Assembly (NCBI GenBank): GCA_001244265.2
Contig: CDLV01000005.1
Span: 744,001-808,000, forward strand
Direction of reading: 5' to 3'
Origin: Microbotryum violaceum
Lineage: Eukaryota
DNA: 64,000 nucleotides
Position 1 is the first letter of the stretch. Each line of letters begins with the position of its first letter. Of this stretch, positions 30,830 through 42,758 are shown piece after piece. The position numbers and the translations under genes were made by a program. The notes below the pieces were generated by a model. The model had not been told where the DNA came from. It did not search any database and saw only the letters and a list, made by a program, of their open reading frames with translations.

Positions 30830-32807
30830 ATGTCTGTCGAGCTCAGCCACGAGAAGATTACCGATGACGGTTCCGACCTCATTAACTCGGCCGTCGACCT
30901 CAACGCCCGTCGCCGTGCTGCGCTCGAGGCGCTTGACAACAAGCCTTTCGGCTGGTTCCACGTCAAGGCGTGCTTAGTCGCCGGTGTCGGGTTCTACACC
31001 GATGCTTACGATGTGAGTTTTTCATTTTCTACTCTCGCTGAGATCAGCCTACTGGAAAATGCCCAATCGTCGGATAAACCGAGGCCCGGTGTCTGGTGTA
31101 GCCGGCCTTCCTCAGGCTTCGAACTCTGACGCCGAACGAGGCGGCACATTCGGGCTTTGAAACTGACCTAAGCGCCTTCGTGCTTCTCCTATCCGCTAGA
31201 TTTTCGCCATCAACTTGGCCTCGACGATGATCGGAGTGAGTCGCTTTTTGCATTTCCTTTCAGTCGTAAACCCGAGTTGCGGTGTCTGAGCACGTCATAG
31301 ACTTTGTCACCATCAACAGTACGTCTACCGACCCATCACCCTCGCCAAGCCCCGTGGAGCGCTTACGGCCAACCAAGATCTCGGTCTCAAGGTCGCCACG
31401 CCCGTCGGCACCTTGCTCGGTCAACTCGGCTTTGGTGTAAGTCATATAGCATTTAAAATGAAACTCACGGTGATTGACATGACCACTACTCCACAGTACC
31501 TTGCCGATGTGTACGGTCGCAAGAAGATGTACGGCATTGAGCTCATGGTCATCATCATCGCCACCGTCGGCCAAGCCGTCGCCGGTCGAGGCCCCGGTAT
31601 CTCCCTCCTCGGCGTCCTCATCTTCTGGCGAGTACTCATGGGTATCGGAATTGGTGGCGACTACCCTCTTTCCGCCACCATCACGTCCGAGTTCGCTGCG
31701 ACACGCATCCGTGGTCGCATGATGACTGCCGTCTTTGCCTCGCAAGGATGGGGACAGCTCTCGGCCGCCCTCGTCTCGCTCGTCTGCCTTGCCGCATTCA
31801 AGAAGCAAATCTTGGCCGATGACCCTCTCTACCCCCGCCATCTCGACTTTGTTTGGCGATTGCTCATCGGTCTCGGCGCTGTCCCCGGTGGTGTCGCCCT
31901 CTACTTCCGTCTCACGATCCCCGAGACCCCTCGCTTCACCATGGACATCGAGCGCAACGTCAAGCAAGCCTCGACTGACGTCGATGCCTTCCTCTCGACC
32001 GGTGGCTACGTTCACGACTACGAACAACCCCAGGCCGTTAAGGTTGAGGCCCCCGTCGCCAGCCGCCGTGACTTCATTGCCCACTTCTCCAAGTGGGAGA
32101 ACGGCAAGGTCCTTCTCGGCTGCGCCTACTCGTGGTTTGCCCTCGATGTCGCCTTTTACGGTCTCGGTCTCAACTCGTCCATCATTCTCGGAGCCATCGG
32201 CTACGGCAACGTCAGCAGCGGAACCCCCCAATTCATCCGTTACCAGACCCTTCACAATCTCTCGATCGGCAACATCATCCTGTCCGTGGCCGGTCTCATC
32301 CCGGGCTACTGGGTCTCCTTCCTCTTCATCGACTCGTGGGGCCGCAAGCCCATCCAGATCATGGGCTTCTGCTTCCTCGTCGTCACTCTCTCAGCCATGG
32401 GTTTCGGTTACCACAAGCTCAAGGACAACGCCCCCGGTGCTTTCGTCGCTCTCTATTGCCTCACCAACTTTTTCCAGAACTTTGGCCCCAACACCACGAC
32501 CTTCGTCGTCCCCGGTGAGGTCTTCCCTACCCGATACCGTTCGACCGCGCACGGTATCAGTGCCGCCTCGGGCAAGTTTGGTGCCATTGTTGCTCAGATC
32601 ATGGCTTTCAAGCTCAAGGACCGTGGAGGAGCCCCCGGTTCCAACAACTGGGTCAACCACGTGCTCCAGATCTTTGCGCTCTTCATGCTCACGGGTCTTT
32701 TCTCGACTTTCCTCATTCCCGAGACCAAGGGCAAGTCACTCGAGGAGCTCTCCAACGAGCCACAAGACGAGTTCATTGCCCCTCCCAAGGCTTCTGCCCG
32801 TGTCTAA
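30830..32807 (+). CDS. PHO84: High-affinity phosphate:H+ symporter (MFS)
   Basis: VAGVGFYTDAYD|IFAINL, GIGIGGDYPLSA, RRLTIPETPRF-type motif (FRLTIPETPRF), FFQNFGPNTTTF, EVFPTRYRSTAHGISAASGK, IPETKGKSLEEL. Confidence 0.96.
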
Positions 32808-33630
32808 GAAAAGAGGGTGTCGATTCCGACCATCTTGGTTTCACTTCTTGCGCCCGTCGTCCAGTCATGGGGGGTTCCACCGTAATGCGTGTGTTTAGGT
32901 CTGCGTGTGGTTCGGGCACGATCTAACTTTTCGTGTCACATAGTAATATTAGTTATAGATTGACTGTTTGCTCTGCCAGTATCCAGTTTCCAAATTTCGT
33001 CTGAATGTGGCGAGAGCGACGGCGAGGTGAGCGGCTTATAAGTGCTGCGCATGCGCGGTCCCCATAGCCTCATTTGCCTCGTCTTTACAAGAGATATAGT
33101 ACAGACGCTGGCGGTACCCGTGGATCCCTCGTCCACACGCGATGCCAGAGGTCAATCAAGACTGGCACGGTCGCGAGAAATTCGACTTGTAGGCGTCGGT
33201 GGAGGCCCACAAGGACGAACACGATGCCGGTTCTTCGAGAGTCGCCGAAGACGACGCTAGGGATGCTTGGTACCAGAAGCGTGAGAGTCCCTTGCCGGCT
33301 ACGAAAGAGAGGGTCCACGCCGACTCAGAAGAGGCGATCCACCAAGAGATTGAAAAACTTGCAACATCAAAGCGAGAACTATTCAAGTGATCGTCAAGCT
33401 CCCCAAGTTACTTCTCACCCCCGATAAGCCCAAATACGAAGGTGGAGCCTCGCGGATAACGAGTCGATTGTCGCGACGGGCCGGTAAACGGTCCCGTCGC
33501 CGTCGCTACTACGACCAAGAGAGCACCACAGAATCTGCCCACGGTTCGCGAGCGTCGTCCTTATGCTAGGGCACAATTATTTCGACGTTGCACGTTCATC
33601 TAAGGAGACACTTCATATAATTCCCTTCAT

Positions 33631-36600
33631 CTAAAGTTCATCCTTCTCGTTCGACAAGTTAGTCGCCTCCTCGAAGCAAACGGCGGGTGTGTTGATCTTG
33701 AACAGATACAAGCACTTGTCCGGTTCGGTCACCGACACGAGCTCGTTCTTCGTCCCACAGGTCAGTAAAACCCTCGACGATCGCACGGGTCCATTCCAGC
33801 ATCGCGCTCCTTCGCTGTAGCTCTGTTCAAGATAGTACTCGTCCGTTCCGACGGTCGCGGTCGGGGACCAGCCGGAGAAGGTGCCAAGTGACGTCGGCAC
33901 ACCGTGTTGAATCTGTTCAGCCTTGTCTAAGAAGCAGACCTTGTACTCGAACCTGTGATTTTATAGGACAAGTACGATGAGTGATCTAGTGACACTGTGA
34001 TCAAATGCTCGAAGCATAACTCGCCCTCCGTGATCTTTCTCAAGACATGTTTCGGCCAGCTTTTTCCATTCCCAATCGCGTCCGTAGTCGCGGTTGAGGT
34101 CGCCCTGCGCCGACGAGATGCGCTCTTCAAGTCGACCCTTCTCATCTACCAAAGCGCTGACAGCCGCGCGTGCAGACGTCAATTCTACCAAGATTTGCAT
34201 GTACTGTCAATAACGGTACGCGGAAAGGGAAGCAGCGCCGTTCGAATGTACTCACCAGCCGTTTCGGCACCCTCCGTCGACGCGGAAGGGTAGATGATGC
34301 CCGTGCCGGCGAGCACATCCATCAAGCTCTTCTTGAAGGCATCGTAGCGCGGCTTGAACTTGTCAGGGATGTACTCGCCGATGTCGAAGACTGCGCCAAA
34401 CACGAGATAACGTGAGCATGTAGGAGCTTGCACCCACACGCTTGCCCATATTCCAAAACTTACTCGTCGAGGAAGAGCTCGGAACAACCCGCTCGCCAAC
34501 GCGAGTCGACAAGCTATCGATGAGGTTGAGCGGGTCCTCGTTGCGCAGCGCATTAAGTTGGTCATCGGACATGTCGTCTATGTCGTTGGCGACGGCGACC
34601 TGGAGGATCTCGCCTTCGATTTGGTAGGGTTTGCCATTTTCGTCGAGGAGGTTGTTCGTCGTTTGCCATTCCTTGAACGCTCGAGTGGCGCCGAGGACGG
34701 CCATGTCTTGGTAGTTGGGATTGAAGTCGCGCTGCACACAAGTAAGCACGAACGGAATAAGAGTCAGCCAATGTTCTGTATTTCCCACGAAGTCCGCACG
34801 ATGAACTCACCGAAAGATCCGCCAACACCCCACTCAGTTCGACGATATGCCCTTCGAATTTCTGACGATGTTTCTGCAGAGCCTCGATCGCATGCTGCAT
34901 CTCGACGATCTTCTCATACAACAAGCTCTCCTTCTTGCGCTGAATATCCCCCGCCGCCTCATTCTCCAATCTCTCCAAAGTGGCTTGCGACGACTGTTGC
35001 TTGGCCGTCAATCGTTCGAGTTCTTTTTGGCCCTTTTCGATCTCATCCTGTAGCCTCCCTTTTTCCTTGACGCCGAATTTGATGTAGTCCCGACGAATCG
35101 CAGCGCCAACACGCTGCTTCCTCTTCTTTTCCGCCATGATCCTCGCGTTCTCCCTTGCGAGCTCAGCACAAAAGTTACCGCACTTGGCTTTGCCGTCCGT
35201 TTCGTCCGAACCGTCACAGCATTCAGGATCGCAAATCCCGTCGTTGACGCGCGAACGAAGGATACAGTTGGGTGTGAAACCTTGATTCTGGCAGTAGAAC
35301 TGACCGGGGGCGCATTCGGGAGATTGCAAGCGAGCTTCATGGTCGATGGCAGGAACGGTCGGGCAGGCGTTGCCTCCAAAGTCGAGGGTGATGTCCCAGT
35401 CTTGCACGACGAGCGCTCCGGCATCTTTGATGACGAGTTCGGTCGAACGTCTTCCACTGCGTCGACGAGCATTCGAGGCAGCCAGGCCGTCTATCCAGTC
35501 GAATTCGAGGCCTTGTTGCGTACCCGCGAGTCGGACACAGGTAGGTTTGCTCGCGAGACCGAGGACGCGGATCTCTCGAACGACGACATCCTCGATCTTC
35601 TTGGCCCAGGCGTTGGAGGTCGCATCGTACTTTTGCAAGCCAACGGCGGACGGGTCGACGAGTGAGCGCGAAGAGAGGACGAGGGACTTGCTGTCCGGCG
35701 ACGCAGGGGCGAGCTGGAAACCTCGGTGGACAAAGTCGCCTTTTTCGTGGTCGAAGGACTCGCCATCGTCGAGGTAGAGCGAACCCTCGGCCTGGGTGCC
35801 GGTCAAGTCGACGGCAACGACGAGGGTGATGGGGTCCTTCCACATCAAGATCGACGAACGACGAACAAGATCGCGGCGAGGGAAGATGGAACCACCACGG
35901 TGGAAGAGAGGGGTCGAATCGAGCGGCGCGGCGACCTTGATCATCGTTCCACCCGACGCGACACCGAAATAAAGATCGTGGTTGAAGTAGTGGTAGTAAG
36001 GCTGATCGTCGGAGATGTAGACTTCGGCTTGCGTCACCCCCTCGTGGACGACGGGTTTGGCCAACAATCCGGTCGAACCGAGGTAGAACTGATCCTCCAT
36101 GTCGAAACCCTTGGGATCGTTGGGAAAGACGACGTACTGTGGACGCAAAATGGGGATACCCGTGCGACTCGCTTCGTAAAAGGCCGTGTACATCGCCGGT
36201 AAGATCTTGTACCTCAGGCGAATTGATTCGCGCATCATCGAGCGGTAAGGCTCGGCAAAGAGGTAAGGTTCGCGACGCTTGGTGTCGAGATGACCGTGGG
36301 CGCGGAAGAAGGGTGAGAGGGCGCCGACTTGGTACCAACGCGTCATCATCTCTTCGGAGGGGTCGCCAAAGAAACCTCCCGTGTCCGAGCCGGCGAAGGT
36401 CATGCCCGCGATACCGTTTGTCAGCAGCATCGGCAGCGTTGATTGAAGATGTGACCAACGGCCGAGGTTATCACCGGTCCACATGGCGCCGAAGCGTTGA
36501 GAACCCGCGAAGAAGGCGCGCGTGAGCACGAAGGGGCGCCTGGGCACGGGTTCACGCTCGAGCAAACCCCGGGCGGTGATGTTTTGCTGTGGGTGGAAGG

Positions 36601-38784
36601 AGTCTCGGCAGTCAATGATCGCTCGATCGCCCCGATCAGCTACGACGACTCCGGAGAACGTACGTAGAGCATGCCGTTGATGTTGTGCACATCGCGATGT
36701 TCCCATCCTCCGTAGTGGATCGCATCCTTGTGCATGGTAATCTCGGGTCCGTCAAAGACCGAAGGCTAAGGTAGGCGGGCATCGAGGACAAGTTAGTTGC
36801 TACTCCAGATGCTCACTCGCCGACGACCGCGAGACCCACCTCGTTCATATCGTTCCAAATGTACAAATTCTTGGTCGAGCCGACGAACTTGTCGAACCTG
36901 AACAACGAAACCCACCAGTCCCAACTCTTGGGATGGAAGAAATCGACCCAAGCCGAGTCGCCGGTCCAGCACCATCCGCGAAACTCGTTGCCGTCGCGGT
37001 CCTTGCACAGCACGTCGAGATCTTGCGCTTCTTTGTAGACGTGGAGCGACGAGGTGCGCTTGATGTGCGGGTCGACGATCGCGACGAGCTGGAGATACTC
37101 AGATACACAAGAGATCAACGATTCAAGTCACCGCGAGTCCGTGTTGTCAATGGTCAGGCTCACCTGACGCCCTCGATCGACCAATTTCTGCTGCATCTTT
37201 TCAGGGGTGGGGAAGTAGTCCTTGTTCCAAATAAAGTACTTGTGCTCCTCGGCGTACTCGATATCGAGCCACATGACGTCCATGGGGATGTCGAACTCGT
37301 CAAACTTGGTCTGCACTTCCTGCACGTCCTCTTCATTGACATAATTCCATCGACATTGGTGGTATGCGGTAGCGAAGTATTGTGGCATGGGAATCTTGCC
37401 CGTCAAGGTCGTGTATTGGTCAAAGATGTCGAGCGACGAAGGCCCCAAGAAGACGAAAAGGTCCAAGATGCCCGATTCGGCGATCCAATGCGTCGACGTT
37501 GTGACCGGAGAAGGACCCGCATCCGTCGACGCGCCGTCCTTGGTCCTCTTCTTGAAGGCCGAGGTAATACGCTTAGGGGTCGAGCTCTTGGTGATGTCGA
37601 TCCACATCTCGGATCCGATGGCGGCAAAGACGGCGACGGTCGATCCGGCGCGGTGGGCCTTCATGAAGGGGATCGAGCCGTAGATGGCCATCTCCGAGTC
37701 TGCGTCGTATTCAAAGACGTCGAGGTTGTAGAGGCGGTAAGGGTCGGTGTAAGCGTTCGTGCCACCCCTGTGTTGGGTTGTTCGGTTAGTTTGGAGGGGC
37801 TGCTCTCTTTGAGCTCGTTGCAGATGCGCTGACGTACCTGGTCTGCTTGAGACTCAGCGTCGAGGCATGTTGGGGAATACCATAGACGTGTTCGTAACCA
37901 AGGAAGTTGATGTCGAGACTGAGCGATTCGGGGCCTGTTTCCGTGCGCGGGCAAGCCAAGTTTTAGCCGAGTGCAAATCTAGCGCGTAAGGATGCGCACT
38001 CACCCTTGGGCTTGGAGTCTTGTTTGCCATTGAAACTCTCCTCCCACATGCCGTCGTCGCTGGTGGGTAAGAAGCCCGGGTAGGCCTTGTCGGGTACAAT
38101 GACGGTCTGTTCGGTCGGATGGTCCGGGTCCTGAATGACGACCTCGCCCTGGTCCTGGCCGGCGATAGGTTTGACGCGAAAGTGTTCCATGTTGAACAAG
38201 CCCCTCTCGTTCAGGACGATGTGGGGTTGTCCATCGCGAAGGAAGGTGATGAGCAATGGATCGTGTTGGACCTGGACCTGTTGGTCGTGTTGGGGCGGAC
38301 CGTACGAGATGGTCGATTGCTTGGCATCGATCTCGACCGAATAATGAGCGTCGTCGAGATCAAGAACCGGTTCTTGCACCAAGGCCCAAGAAGCGGTCTC
38401 ATTGTACCTCTGCCTCAATCCATCGACCTCGTCGACGATCACGCGCGCCAAGCCATCGTTCTGGAAGCGGATCTCGAGCCGGAAGCCGATTAAAGGGAAC
38501 AGGGCGTTTTTGACCGACGCGATGTAGCGCCCTGCCTCGAAGCGGGGCGGGCTAGCGATCGAGTAGGGCGATTTCCAAGTAGAGGAAGCGTCGATGGCTC
38601 GGTCGGCGAGTTGTCGGTTGCGATTGCAGAAGCCGGATTGCTCGCACGTCTTAAAGTCCTGCTTCTTGACCGCGATAACGAGGTCCACGCTGGTGATCGC
38701 GGCCCACACGAGCAGCAGCACAGAGAGGCGACGGGACCAGGTGGAAGACGGCTCTGTCCTGGCCGTGGGTCGCGTTCGTGCCAT
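33631..38784 (-). CDS. ER glucosidase II alpha-beta fusion protein: signal peptide + GH31 alpha subunit + LDLa-like/coiled-coil/MRH beta subunit + KDEL
   Basis: Alpha: [76 protein letters not shown]. Beta, same frame: FYCQNQG...[61 protein letters not shown]...TPAVC, ending EKDEL-stop. Confidence 0.9.
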
Positions 38785-39226
38785 GGTCGTTGGGGGTGGG
38801 GCAGAGTAGAGTCTCCGGGGTTCGATGTAGCGCACGCGAGTGGGTGAAACGTGGCAATTCGCGCAGAGCCAAGCCAGTCAGTGCCGCTTGCCGGCCACGT
38901 CGACGGACGTCGACCGCACCTGGCCAGGCCTGGCCCAGCGGAGCACTGCGGAGCATTATCGATCCGCACCGGGAGCCGCCAAGGGGCACACCGCATTGCA
39001 GAGGATTACATGAGATTACATGAGGGTGTAGAAAATACCAAGGACTGAACTTTTCGGCTACGACTCGGGCTGGAAAAGTCGATCATCATTTCCCTTTATT
39101 TCGGGGGGCCAACTCCTCCGCAGTTCCTCCGGTCCCCGTGCTCGTCCCGTCCTCGCGGTGCTCGAGTCTTTGCCCTCTCTTCGCCTCAATCGACACCCAC
39201 CCTGACCCTCCCCCCCGACACAGCCC

Positions 39227-40362
39227 ATGGCGATTTCGCACCACTCCCACTCGGGCCAGTTCTGCCTCCACGCCAATGGGACGCTCGAACAAGTCGTCCA
39301 GACCGCGATCGCAAAAGGGTTCACCACCTTTGGCTTGACCGAACATGTGCCCAGGTCAAGAGTGCAGGATTTGTATCCCGAGGAGGTGAGTGATGGCAGC
39401 TCATCGGTGTACTCGAACTACACCGAGCTGGACGCTGACTCTCTCTCTCTCGCCCATACCTCCGCCCCCACCCGGACGACCCCCACTTTTTTTGCAAAAA
39501 AGGCCGACCTCACCCCCGAGGACCTCACCACCACGTTCGCCTCCTACCTCGCCGAAGCCCAACGACTCCAGATTCACTATTCCGCCCAAATCACCCTCCT
39601 CATAGGCCTCGAAACCGAATCCATACACCCTCTCACCCTAGATGAACTCGAATTTCTCCTTTCGGACCCGTCAAGTCCGATCCAATACCTCGTCGGTTCG
39701 ATCCACCACGTTTCCGAGACACCCATCGATTTCGATCAACGAACGTACCATACCCTCCTCTCCTCCCTCCCCGCTCCCACGAGCGAGACTCGACTCATTC
39801 TCCTGTTCTCCTCCTACTTTGACGCGCAATACGACCTTCTCGTGCGGTTCAAACCCGAAGTGATAGGCCATTTCGATCTGTGTCGGTTGTATGACCCCGA
39901 TCAACAGTTCAAAAAGTATCCCCAAGTTTGGGCCAAGGTTGAGAGGAATGTCAAACAGGCGATTGGGTACGGCGCCTTGTTTGAAATCAACGCTTCGGCT
40001 TTTCGGAAGGGGTGGAAGACGCCTTATCCGGGCCGGGATGTCTTTGAGGTAAGTGAGGGCAGCCTTTGCTCACGAGAAACAGAACGGACTACCTGACCCC
40101 AACAGACCCACCTCTACAGCTGATCCAATCCCTCGGCGGCCGCTTCACCCTCTCGGACGACTCGCACGGTCCTCAAGCCGTAGGACTACACTACGACCAA
40201 ACTTATTCCTATCTCGTCGAAATGGGTCTTCAAGAACTATGGCACCTTGCACCTGCACCGGTAGGATCGGCCGATTCAAACGTCTCGAGAGGTGTGGTGG
40301 CTAGGCAGATTGAAGGGAGACCTTGGGAAAAGGAGTGGAGGGATCTGTTGCAGCGAGCATAG
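39227..40362 (+). CDS. HIS2: Histidinol-phosphatase (PHP family)
   Basis: SHHSHSGQFCLHA, LTEHVPR, YLVGSIHHV, IGHFDLCRL, EINASAFRKG, FTLSDDSHG. Confidence 0.93.
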
Positions 40363-40458: not shown

Positions 40459-42758
40459 TTAGTCCCACTCGCCCACCCCCTCTCCAAGCCACTCCAATTC
40501 CTCCCTCTCAAAACCCTCCGCATCCCCTCTCCCACTCTCCATATCCACCGCTCTCAAAATGGGCAAACTCCCGACTAACATGACCAAAATCAACACGAAA
40601 CCGTACCTGATCTGACCCGTCGCATTCGTAATGATGGCGACCAACATCGGTCCGAGGAAGGAGGAGGATTTGTCCGTGATGCTGAGGAGACCGAAGAATT
40701 GCGCGGAGCGCGAAGGGGGGATAATTTCGGAGAAACAGGTGCGGATGAAGGCTTGGAGGGAGCCGTAGAGGGCTTTTTGTTTTTTGTTTTGATGAGTCGG
40801 GAAGAATGAAAATGCGGTTGCGTCAGTCAATCAAAGGGAACACTTTAAAGTAGAACTCTGCATCTTCACCGACCCACCTCCAAAGACGAACGCGAGCGGG
40901 TAAATCTGCCACGAAGTTCGGAGCGCGACGATCCCCCAGAAAGGAATCACACACATCCCCATCGCCAACGCCATCAACGTCCTCAAATTCGACCAACCCC
41001 AACGTCTTTGAACCTTGGGCACCGTAATCGCCCCCACGATCCCCGCAGCGGGCGAAATGACAGCGATCGCGATCAAGGCAGCAGTGGGGAGGCCCAACGT
41101 CGTTTTGGCGAACAGCATCGCCGTTGAAGTGATCGTCGACCCGGCATCGCTGAGAAAGAAGCATGCGGCTAGGAAGGTAAAGGTCGCGGGGAGTCGACGC
41201 CATTCGCGGAGCATGCGATCGAGCGCTCGCCAACCTTCTGCGACGCGCGTGCGGATGGGGATATTGGGTGGGGGGTGTTCGGAGAGCGTGTAGTCTTTCG
41301 GAGGACGGAGCCAGATCACCGCCGCTACATGAGGCATTCACAAGGAGTTTGAGTGCGATCAGTAAAATTGGTTCGACTCGACTCTTGTGATATGGACTCA
41401 CGTATGGTACCACCACCCCACACGGCGCCCGCACCAGCGATCGCCATCCTCATCCCCCACGACGATCCACCCCCTATCCCAATCGGGACCAACGCCAACA
41501 CGAGCGCAAGGATCCCACTCGTATACCCGACTGCGATCCCTTTGGACGAAACCGCGGCCGTAGCGAGCGCCTTGGCTTGAATGTATTCGTCCCTTGCGCG
41601 AACAAAGGCCTGCGAGGCCGACAAGAGGACTTCGCCGGGGACTTTGGAAGAGGATCGATTCGCTGAACGAGGACCACCGGGTGTCGAAGGTGGTCGCAGA
41701 GAGGCGAGATGCCGTCGCGCCGAGTCGAGGGTGTTGTGAAGCTCGAGGACGTGGGATGATGACCTTCCGAGATCAGGAACTGTGAATATTGCCGCCCACT
41801 TTCTATGATCTCGCTCTCACTCTTCTGAGCCTCATGAAACTGCGAGACCACTCACGATAGGAATTGAGGCAGACCGATCCAGCGCCGAACGCGACGTTGG
41901 CCCCGATAGCAAGGAGGATGCACAGTAGCCACACGGGTGATTGCGCAGGTGCGACCAAAAAACCCATGGTACAGATCGTGCCGATCGTCGCGAACGCGAC
42001 GAGCAGCCGATGCCTTGCCCTCGCTGTGTTCAGTCCCCCAAAAGTCAGCTCGGCGTCTCATTGCTCGTTGCCTTACGAAAAAAAAACTTCATCTACAGAT
42101 ACGCACGTTCATCAGCCCAATTGCCCATGGAGATGACCGTCAGCGCTTGAACTGCCACACCAGCCGAGTATGTATAGAGCGAGAACGAAGCGGTGTCGAG
42201 GTAGTGCCCCAAGAGGCGAACAGCGCAACGAGTCGAATCGGTCGTTCCACCGCCGTCAGAGGGGACTTGGGACGAAGGGGGACAGGGTAGGAGGTACGAA
42301 GGGCCGAGACGACCATTTTCTCGAGCATAGGTTTCTAGTATGACGGGTAAGAAGAGACCGCCTAATCGAGGCCAGCGATTCCGGTAATGAGGTCAGTCCG
42401 TAGCTCGGTCGAGATGGTGCGGAACAAGTGGGGGTGAGCCCAGACGTCAGCTGCCAGCAGTGGACTCCGACGAACCTGCGACGGTGACATACACCTCGCT
42501 CGCAATTGAGTAGGCGTAAAAACCCTTGAGCAACCTCTTTCGATGACTGCTGTTCTTCTTGTTGCCGTACACGCCGTTTGACGATCCATCGCTTGTGGAA
42601 CGAGGCTCGCCCAGTTCGGCGTGAGGGTGTGGGGTCGTAACGCTGCCGTCCAAGAGGGCCCAGGCCTCGTCACCATCGGCGGGCGGCAGCTCGGGCACAC
42701 CCACGACCTCGGCCCGTTGGATCGGCGTCAGGTGGGTTGAGACTTTAGACGAGGTCAT
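40459..42758 (-). CDS. ATG22: Atg22-like vacuolar amino-acid efflux MFS transporter
   Basis: GFYAYSIASE, SSKGIAVGY, FLAACFFLSD, FSEIIPPSRSAQFFGLLSITDKSSSFLGP. Confidence 0.88.

Follow-up and report, generated by a model that had tools for sequence, protein, structure and literature searches.

A single open reading frame for both subunits, alpha and beta, of endoplasmic reticulum glucosidase II in Microbotryum and other Pucciniomycotina

Glucosidase II of the endoplasmic reticulum (ER) is built, in yeast, animals and plants, from two subunits encoded by two genes. A 64,000-nucleotide stretch of the genome of the anther-smut fungus Microbotryum violaceum (assembly GCA_001244265.2, contig CDLV01000005.1, forward-strand positions 744,001 to 808,000; hereafter the window, within which positions are counted from its first letter) contains a gene in which the two subunits follow each other in one reading frame. 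It is likely, at a probability of roughly 0.8, that this is a real and expressed gene of Microbotryum lychnidis-dioicae encoding ER glucosidase II as one polypeptide, that the fusion happened once and was inherited vertically, and that the tether between the two parts made the first module of the alpha-binding domain of beta dispensable. The fusion is a real and ancient single-chain architecture of a well-understood enzyme and brings no new mechanism with it. An initial annotation, made from the letters of the window, had already proposed the fusion; the loss of the beta signal peptide and of the first module in every fused form is a point beyond it.

In the heterodimer, as described in the available accounts, the alpha subunit is catalytic and is held by the N-terminal G2B domain of beta; beta also provides a C-terminal xDEL signal, by which both stay in the ER, and an MRH domain that enhances the trimming of natural glycans (PMC12732852; PMC3103398). 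The enzyme has been reviewed, in the part of that article concerned with its composition, as an obligate heterodimer of two gene products (PMC12732852). Satoh 2016 (PMC4742823) deals with the alpha subunit only. Full-text literature search, which did not reach supplements and subscription journals, found no description of a natural alpha-beta fusion, and the words 'glucosidase' and 'GH31' occur 0 times in the genome paper of M. lychnidis-dioicae (main text; PMC4469406). A single-chain glucosidase II across Pucciniomycotina, with its alpha-binding domain halved, appears to be undescribed.

The fused gene and its transcripts

The fused gene lies on the minus strand at positions 33631-38784 and is divided into ten exons (38784-38004, 37934-37838, 37767-37164, 37088-36840, 36765-36664, 36586-34811, 34731-34464, 34390-34256, 34184-34025 and 33952-33631), which together give a coding sequence of 4494 nt, closed by the stop codon at 33631-33633 at the end of exon 10, and a product of 1497 amino acids. 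This model exactly reproduces the span and the long minus-strand exon 34811-36586 given in the initial annotation. It is also letter-identical to the deposited MVLG_00506 (KDE09184.1, UniProt U5GZA2) of Microbotryum lychnidis-dioicae p1A1 Lamole, for which the UniProt name is 'Glucosidase 2 subunit beta'; the fused gene model is already public, and what is new is its recognition and description, not the sequence. The nine introns measure 69-79 nt each, eight of them being GT-AG and one GC-AG. The exception is intron 9 (33953..34024, minus strand), where the GC donor is the sole one to keep the frame and where a skip of 72 nt is seen in spliced contigs of three sequencing runs, X1, X4 and X6.

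The junction between the two parts falls inside exon 6 (34811..36586, minus strand), whose 592 codons lead from the GH31 acid/base motif of alpha through the linker into beta, as the open reading frame (ORF), the Pfam matches and the gene model all indicate. The surrounding minus-strand frame, 34562..36751, extends over 729 codons from stop to stop, uninterrupted across the junction, and holds the WTGDN motif, the alpha C-terminus, the linker, the cysteine motif of beta and a helical stretch, which is the arrangement originally claimed for this exon.

The sequencing runs compared with the window are not recorded as RNA, and their type was judged from the removal of introns in the contigs; where introns are removed, the contigs must derive from spliced RNA, which passes uninterrupted from alpha to beta. 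The most extensive evidence comes from run X6, of a related organism that is about 4% different, in which a single contig of 4549 nt covers 33626-38742, and with it alpha and beta together. All nine introns are removed from this contig at exactly the modelled borders, the GC-AG intron included, and across exon 6 it (record 22) runs on without a gap, at 92 substitutions. Small spliced contigs with 0 differences from the window came from runs X1 and X4, and the junction, from the alpha end through the linker to the beta start, is bridged by record 4 of X1 (35249-35446) and record 18 of X4 (35240-35424). For the transcript check across 35200-35500 that had been suggested at the outset, these contigs speak in favour of the fusion, two contigs bridging the junction and the X6 contig covering all of it. 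Records 9 and 13 of run X3 still contain introns 9 and 3, and its contigs have no joints; this run behaves like DNA and is uninformative on splicing. Parts without cover in X1, X3 and X4 were not used. In a rust-like relative, full fused ORFs of 1526-1527 aa lie on 47 contigs of only 4.8-5.7 kb, that is, of transcript size. Spliced RNA sequence that runs unbroken from alpha into beta exists.

The deposited model of the sister species Microbotryum silenes-dioicae (P0001, 1508 aa) departs from the window gene at two splice sites. It partly reads through the GC-AG intron 9 (33953-34024), so that 10 residues replace FE and the conserved EY.Y.VC motif of the MRH domain is broken, and at intron 3 (37089-37163) it uses an acceptor 9 nt upstream, which adds YLQ. 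Both differences are probably annotation errors, because spliced contigs support the borders used in the window, for intron 9 in X1, X4 and X6 and for intron 3 in X6.

Domain anatomy on the two sides of the junction

The alpha part has the architecture of a GH31 catalytic subunit. The protein opens with a signal-peptide-like N-terminus of about residues 1-37 (38674..38784, minus strand), which shows a hydrophobic core in the hydropathy scan; the top hydrophobic 15-residue windows of the whole protein begin at residues 19-26, and the same scan places none of the top windows near the alpha/beta junction, which on hydropathy agrees with the single signal peptide of the initial annotation. ORFs upstream of the junction ORF encode the mutarotase-like N-terminal domain PF13802, which scores 59.0 and 44.6 bits at a cut-off of 27, as well as the GH31 barrel's first half. 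The barrel itself, PF01055, matches on three exons with 170.9, 66.6 and 83.0 bits (Pfam cut-off 23.5), with E 5.9e-50 in the junction ORF, and is followed by the GH31 C-terminal domain PF21365 (73.0 bits, E 2.8e-20, cut-off 24.4); PF17137 (DUF5110) stays below its threshold, at 23.8 bits vs a cut-off of 27. The motif WNDMNE is found at residues 572-577, at the end of exon 4 (36840..36857, minus strand); close to the beginning of exon 6, residues 647-651 form WTGDN (36467..36481, minus strand). From what is generally known of GH31 enzymes, we take the Asp of WNDMNE to be the nucleophile and WTGDN to be the acid/base motif. Among 34 aligned fused proteins, DMNE is kept in 29, and the W, G, D and N of WTGDN are invariant in all.

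Among solved structures, the alpha part finds its best match in 5dkx_A, the GII-alpha of Chaetomium (E 8e-102), followed by the mouse and human neutral alpha-glucosidase AB (E about 1e-80), other GH31 enzymes in the PDB, such as lysosomal and plant alpha-glucosidase, being weaker (E about 1e-42 to 1e-44). The last alpha strand, DWDITLDF, occupies residues 1007-1014 (35378..35401, minus strand), and in an alignment with five free alpha proteins of other basidiomycetes these stop where the fused linker starts. A basic cluster, ARRRSGRRS, is present at about residues 985-992 (window 35400-35480) in a loop of the last alpha domain, its RR pairs (985-986 and 990-991) being located about 30-35 residues upstream of the junction; at this position S/GRR..GK is seen in related Microbotryomycetes, and Gly/Ser-rich loops in the free alpha subunits of other subphyla.

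The linker, which had been estimated at about 20 residues, measures 21 in the alignments (1015-1035; 35315..35377, minus strand), could bridge no more than about 70 Å and contains Cys1019, after which Cys1036 opens the retained beta module. This second LDLa-like, Cys-rich module spans residues 1036-1084 (35168..35314, minus strand), as delimited by PF12999 and the human beta structures, and passes into a charged helical region of residues 1085-1203 (34811..35167, minus strand) that still lies inside the PF12999 match and the PDB alignment; the label 'coiled coil' for these residues is inferred from composition. As expected, the later exons provide the MRH domain and the C-terminal KDEL. The MRH/PRKCSH_1 region lies in the last exon (33667..33951, minus strand; PF13015, 79.9 bits, E 2.1e-22, cut-off 23), and the ER-retrieval signal KDEL, present in both the ORF and the gene model, is encoded at 33634..33645 (minus strand). 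PF07915 remains below threshold, at 25.2 bits vs a cut-off of 27. The MRH domain aligns to residues 435-527 of human beta and to the S. pombe MRH structures 2lvx and 4xqm, and the Q, R, E and Y positions which we take to be those that bind the ligand are visible in the window sequence.

That beta is fused to alpha stands as originally proposed; the beta part is not complete, and the own signal peptide and first LDLa-like module of beta are missing in every fused form. In the junction ORF, PF12999 (PRKCSH-like) scores 71.2 bits (E 1.2e-19, cut-off 34.9) over only profile positions 71-171 of 176, and the fused beta aligns to residues 86-213 of human beta in solved structures, i.e., from residue 86 onward, with an insignificant 4-bit match only for the first LDLa-like module. 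The complete two-module G2B domain is not present, the second module alone being kept, and the beta part begins inside exon 6 directly after the alpha C-terminus and the linker. A motif scan of the listed relatives found the first-module block (..NDDYCDCxDGSDEPGT.AC) in 0/37 fused proteins vs 111/115 free beta subunits, the four free proteins without it comprising three with truncated or mis-modelled N-termini and one motif variant, and exactly one copy of the second-module motif in each of the 37 fused proteins. The place of the beta signal peptide and first module is taken by a short loop with two Cys that are invariant in 34 of 34 sequences, the distance from a conserved Trp of the last alpha strand to the first Cys being 10-13 residues and that from Cys to Cys 17-20. 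To judge from this pattern, the two cysteines may close, by a disulfide, a vestige of the first module. Mean column identity is 0.79 in the second module, the highest of the beta part, 0.70 in the MRH domain and 0.56 in the linker. The C-terminus reads [KRH][DE]EL in 35 of the 37 fused proteins, and, of the C-termini of 96 free alpha proteins, the ten most frequent include none of xDEL type. A complex prediction of alpha (95-1017) with the linker and second module (1018-1090), in which the tool left the alignment unused, gave scores of 0.40, 0.38 and 0.35, the best control reaching 0.24; these weigh neither in favour of docking nor against it.

In two junction-crossing clusters without organism name, P0342 and P0343, found on contigs as long as 111 kb, the fusion has diverged further, with a shorter linker, a single Cys and no QSPxC motif (..EYGT.C.......P.GDFLC.NEGH..).

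Distribution and single origin of the fusion

Searches among relatives map the fusion to Pucciniomycotina, rusts and red yeasts among them. With exon 6 as query among longer proteins, the best 120 of 172 matches were listed, and PF01055 and PF12999 occur together in 37 of these, which cover 94-100% of the query; the other 83 lack PF12999 and cover 44-69%. The 37 are full-length or near-full-length relatives with both domains, and every one that bears an organism name belongs, by its checked lineage, to one of four classes of Pucciniomycotina: Microbotryomycetes (Microbotryum, Sporobolomyces, Rhodotorula, Rhodosporidiobolus, Phenoliferia, Meredithblackwellia and others), and the groups of Mixia, of Atractiella and of the Pucciniales (Puccinia, Melampsora, Cronartium, Phakopsora and Austropuccinia). 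The natural fusion that had been proposed is thus borne out, and its lineage is not a narrow one, the fusion being seen in four of the ten Pucciniomycotina classes. That the whole subphylum carries it would be an extrapolation. An exhaustive HMMER search over 1.84 billion representatives yielded 15 cluster representatives with a single matched stretch crossing the junction, and these, with fragments of earlier searches, bring to 20 the further ORFs without organism name that share it, some of them on genomic contigs of up to 245 kb. No organism names are attached to 10 of the junction-crossing cluster representatives, and the taxonomic range was not extended by them. In the ESM Atlas the fused domain set appears in one of 30 matches, maybe the protein's own cluster, which adds little.

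The complementary search, with the beta part as query among shorter proteins, gave 906 matches, of which the best 120 were listed. Free beta subunits account for 115 of these rows, and all named ones belong to Ustilaginomycotina or Agaricomycotina, with no named Pucciniomycotina among them; the remaining five are ORF fragments without PF13015, three of which also have the alpha C-terminal domain. Where Ustilaginomycotina and Agaricomycotina are named as the source, alpha and beta are separate proteins. In a search restricted to lengths of 829-2639 aa, a single alpha-only protein of Pucciniomycotina was found, P0245 of Puccinia triticina, marked 'partial'. It was rejected as an unfused form: its sequence breaks off where the linker begins, at the first residues, and it clusters with a fused protein of 1519 aa that comes from a more recent assembly of this species.

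In a quick IQ-TREE analysis of 40 rows, 16 fused proteins fall by their alpha parts into a single group (Shimodaira–Hasegawa-like approximate likelihood ratio test, SH-aLRT, 99), whose sister comprises Ustilaginomycotina and Agaricomycotina (support 95). In a FastTree analysis, a single clade unites the beta parts of 35 fused proteins, and none of 114 free beta proteins falls inside it. The peculiar junction anatomy shared by the fused proteins is a stronger argument for a single event than the trees.

The closest unfused proteins come from the sister subphyla. Free beta subunits such as that of Sporisorium reilianum ('related to alpha glucosidase II beta subunit', 583 aa) are, among the matches listed, 33-37% identical over 94-98% of the query, and the alpha proteins of Ustilaginomycotina and Agaricomycotina, named 'Glucosidase II subunit alpha' and about 950-1100 aa long, are about 50% identical. 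The trees follow the species groups; unlike the fused beta, the free beta subunits have both LDLa-like modules (111/115 by motif).

Mechanism, alternative explanations and significance

With the known heterodimers (GANAB and PRKCSH of mammals; Rot2 and Gtb1 of S. cerevisiae; GII-alpha and GII-beta of S. pombe) the fused protein shares the GH31 architecture of alpha, with PF13802, PF01055, PF21365 and both motifs, and, on the beta side, the second LDLa-like module, the helical region, the MRH domain and the C-terminal xDEL. Whereas the heterodimer requires two genes and two chains, the fusion has one, lacks the beta signal peptide, carries a two-Cys loop in place of the first G2B module and instead has stoichiometry and ER retention fixed in cis. 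In the reading that we prefer, one N-terminal signal peptide would bring the whole chain into the ER, where the residues up to 1014 would form a complete GH31 catalytic alpha subunit, followed after the linker by the second LDLa-like module, the helical region, the mannose-binding MRH domain and KDEL. The linker Cys is conserved together with the Cys that opens the following module, and the two probably form a disulfide that closes a loop; the retained module, in which an acid cluster is invariant, probably continues to pack on alpha. Like the heterodimer, the fused enzyme would remove the two inner glucoses from N-glycans, the tether supplying the capture of alpha, while KDEL retention and MRH glycan presentation would act in cis at a fixed ratio of 1:1. 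Because capture, stoichiometry and retention would all be provided in cis, the beta signal peptide and first LDLa-like module would have become unnecessary and could be lost. The fusion would have arisen once, at or near the base of Pucciniomycotina, and would have been inherited vertically from then on.

An engineered parallel has been described in S. pombe, where, in the experiments reported, GII-alpha-VDEL, an alpha subunit equipped with an ER-retrieval signal, is retained in the ER without non-covalent capture by beta, as alpha would be in the fusion (Stigliano et al., 2011; PMC3103398). This construct has no MRH domain in cis and, according to the same experiments, still needs beta for G1M9 trimming, whereas the fusion has MRH and KDEL in one chain (PMC3103398). 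In the G2B mutagenesis of that work, the single mutations E73A and E114A each abolish alpha binding and the ER retention of alpha (PMC3103398). By their spacing of 41 residues, E73 and E114 would map to the last Glu of the two DGSDE motifs.

Several points weigh against the single-chain reading or against parts of it. The mutation E73A, as reported, breaks alpha-beta binding, so that the first module matters in S. pombe (PMC3103398) and its loss in the fused proteins requires the tether hypothesis. DMNE is missing or garbled in 5 of the 34 aligned fused proteins (P0022, P0025, P0033, P0034 and P0036), exactly at the border of exon 4 and intron 4; because the deviations fall exactly at this splice border they look like gene-model error, which suggests recurrent mis-splicing in rust and Rhodotorula gene models rather than a real catalytic loss. 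Two of the 37 fused models do not end in xDEL, and these too look like gene-model errors. The fused beta clade has a modest support of 0.886 (FastTree local), and its sister is a truncated fragment. The lack of Pucciniomycotina among free beta subunits rests on the best 120 of 906 matches, and six of the ten Pucciniomycotina classes are absent from every listing, whether of fused or of unfused forms. Transcript ends are not visible in assembled contigs, so that shorter additional transcripts from an internal start or an internal polyadenylation site may exist, and the evidence is at the level of RNA-derived contigs, so that the protein may be cleaved in the linker. On balance we still favour, with less assurance than the fusion itself, the fuller picture in which Pucciniomycotina glucosidase II is an uncleaved single chain, with no free beta in the genome, the tether replacing the first LDLa module and the vestigial loop being closed by a disulfide.

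Cleavage would make the fused product a precursor that folds first and is then cut within the linker or close to it, leaving as working enzyme two chains held together by the retained LDLa-like module. The conservation of this module, which at 0.79 exceeds that of the rest of the beta part, would fit continuing alpha binding, and RR pairs do occur about 30-35 residues upstream of the alpha end; these pairs, however, are situated inside the last alpha domain, and the linker residues 1015-1035 hold no dibasic site when Kex2-type cleavage is considered. Reliance on non-covalent binding is made unlikely by the loss of the first module, which is important for such binding in S. pombe. In fungi, cutting at dibasic sites is usually the work of a protease of the late Golgi, whereas the fused protein carries KDEL. 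Such a precursor seems unlikely to us. A little less likely again is that the fused gene coexists with an independent beta, made either from a paralogous free gene or from an internal promoter in exon 6. Contigs, which cannot show where transcripts start or end, and the survey of free beta, restricted as it is to the best 120 of 906 matches, would allow for this, but no named Pucciniomycotina appears among its 115 free beta rows, the alpha-only P0245 is partial and has a fused cluster mate of 1519 aa, and a product of an internal start would have no signal peptide and could not enter the ER. That the fusion is an artefact, either an assembly error or a merger of neighbouring gene models, is extremely improbable. 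Merged alpha models do occur in the same listing (P0038 of Pleurotus, with a sugar transporter, and P0026 of Mixia, with a helix-loop-helix, HLH, domain), but the junction in the window lies within one exon without a stop, it is crossed by window-identical contigs as well as by contigs of a related species, and the same junction anatomy recurs in the 37 annotated proteins and in 20 further single ORFs on contigs of up to 245 kb. The argument of the initial annotation, that a gene-prediction merge cannot explain an intra-exonic junction, is upheld by the one ORF, by the spliced contigs that bridge it and by the recurrence of this architecture in 37 of 37 full-length or near-full-length relatives with both domains.

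The single-chain reading has consequences for ER quality-control and fungal-genomics specialists, who are the main audience of this finding, and is useful for structural work. Two subunits are hard-wired in one chain in Pucciniomycotina, including rust pathogens and the biotechnology yeast Rhodotorula toruloides, and a fusion of this Rosetta-stone type independently confirms the action of alpha and beta as a 1:1 unit. Once the chains are tethered, neither the first LDLa-like module nor the beta signal peptide would be needed, whereas the mutagenesis reported for S. pombe indicates that both modules matter in the heterodimer. The fused enzyme also offers a natural single-chain protein for structural study of the flexible MRH arm that feeds glycans to the catalytic site. 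Its names in databases, 'Glucosidase 2 subunit beta', 'glycoside hydrolase family 31 protein' and 'hypothetical protein', make it a likely annotation trap, and because of this mixed naming, surveys could score these fungi as lacking one subunit. Should the uncleaved chain be the sole form, it would amount to a natural experiment showing which half of G2B serves only subunit capture, to a ready-made single-chain construct for the structure of the full-length enzyme with its MRH arm, and to a rare genomic change marking a whole subphylum.

The gene is flanked in the window by a divergently transcribed PHP-domain gene (39206-40096, plus strand; PF02811, E 5.3e-20), an ATG22-like fragment (41325-41816, minus strand; PF11700, E 1.9e-06) and a sugar-transporter gene (31290-32807, plus strand; PF00083, E 1.4e-42), and none of these three neighbouring ORFs has an evident link to glucosidase II. 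Two proteins from the listing of relatives look, by their domain content, like merges with a neighbouring gene: the fused P0026 of Mixia osmundae (2122 aa), which is longer by about 600 residues and has an HLH domain (PF00010) in addition, and the alpha model P0038 of Pleurotus ostreatus (1408 aa), which has the sugar-transporter domains PF00083 and PF07690. A sugar-transporter gene adjoins the glucosidase gene in the window as one seems to do in Pleurotus, which may reflect chance or old synteny.

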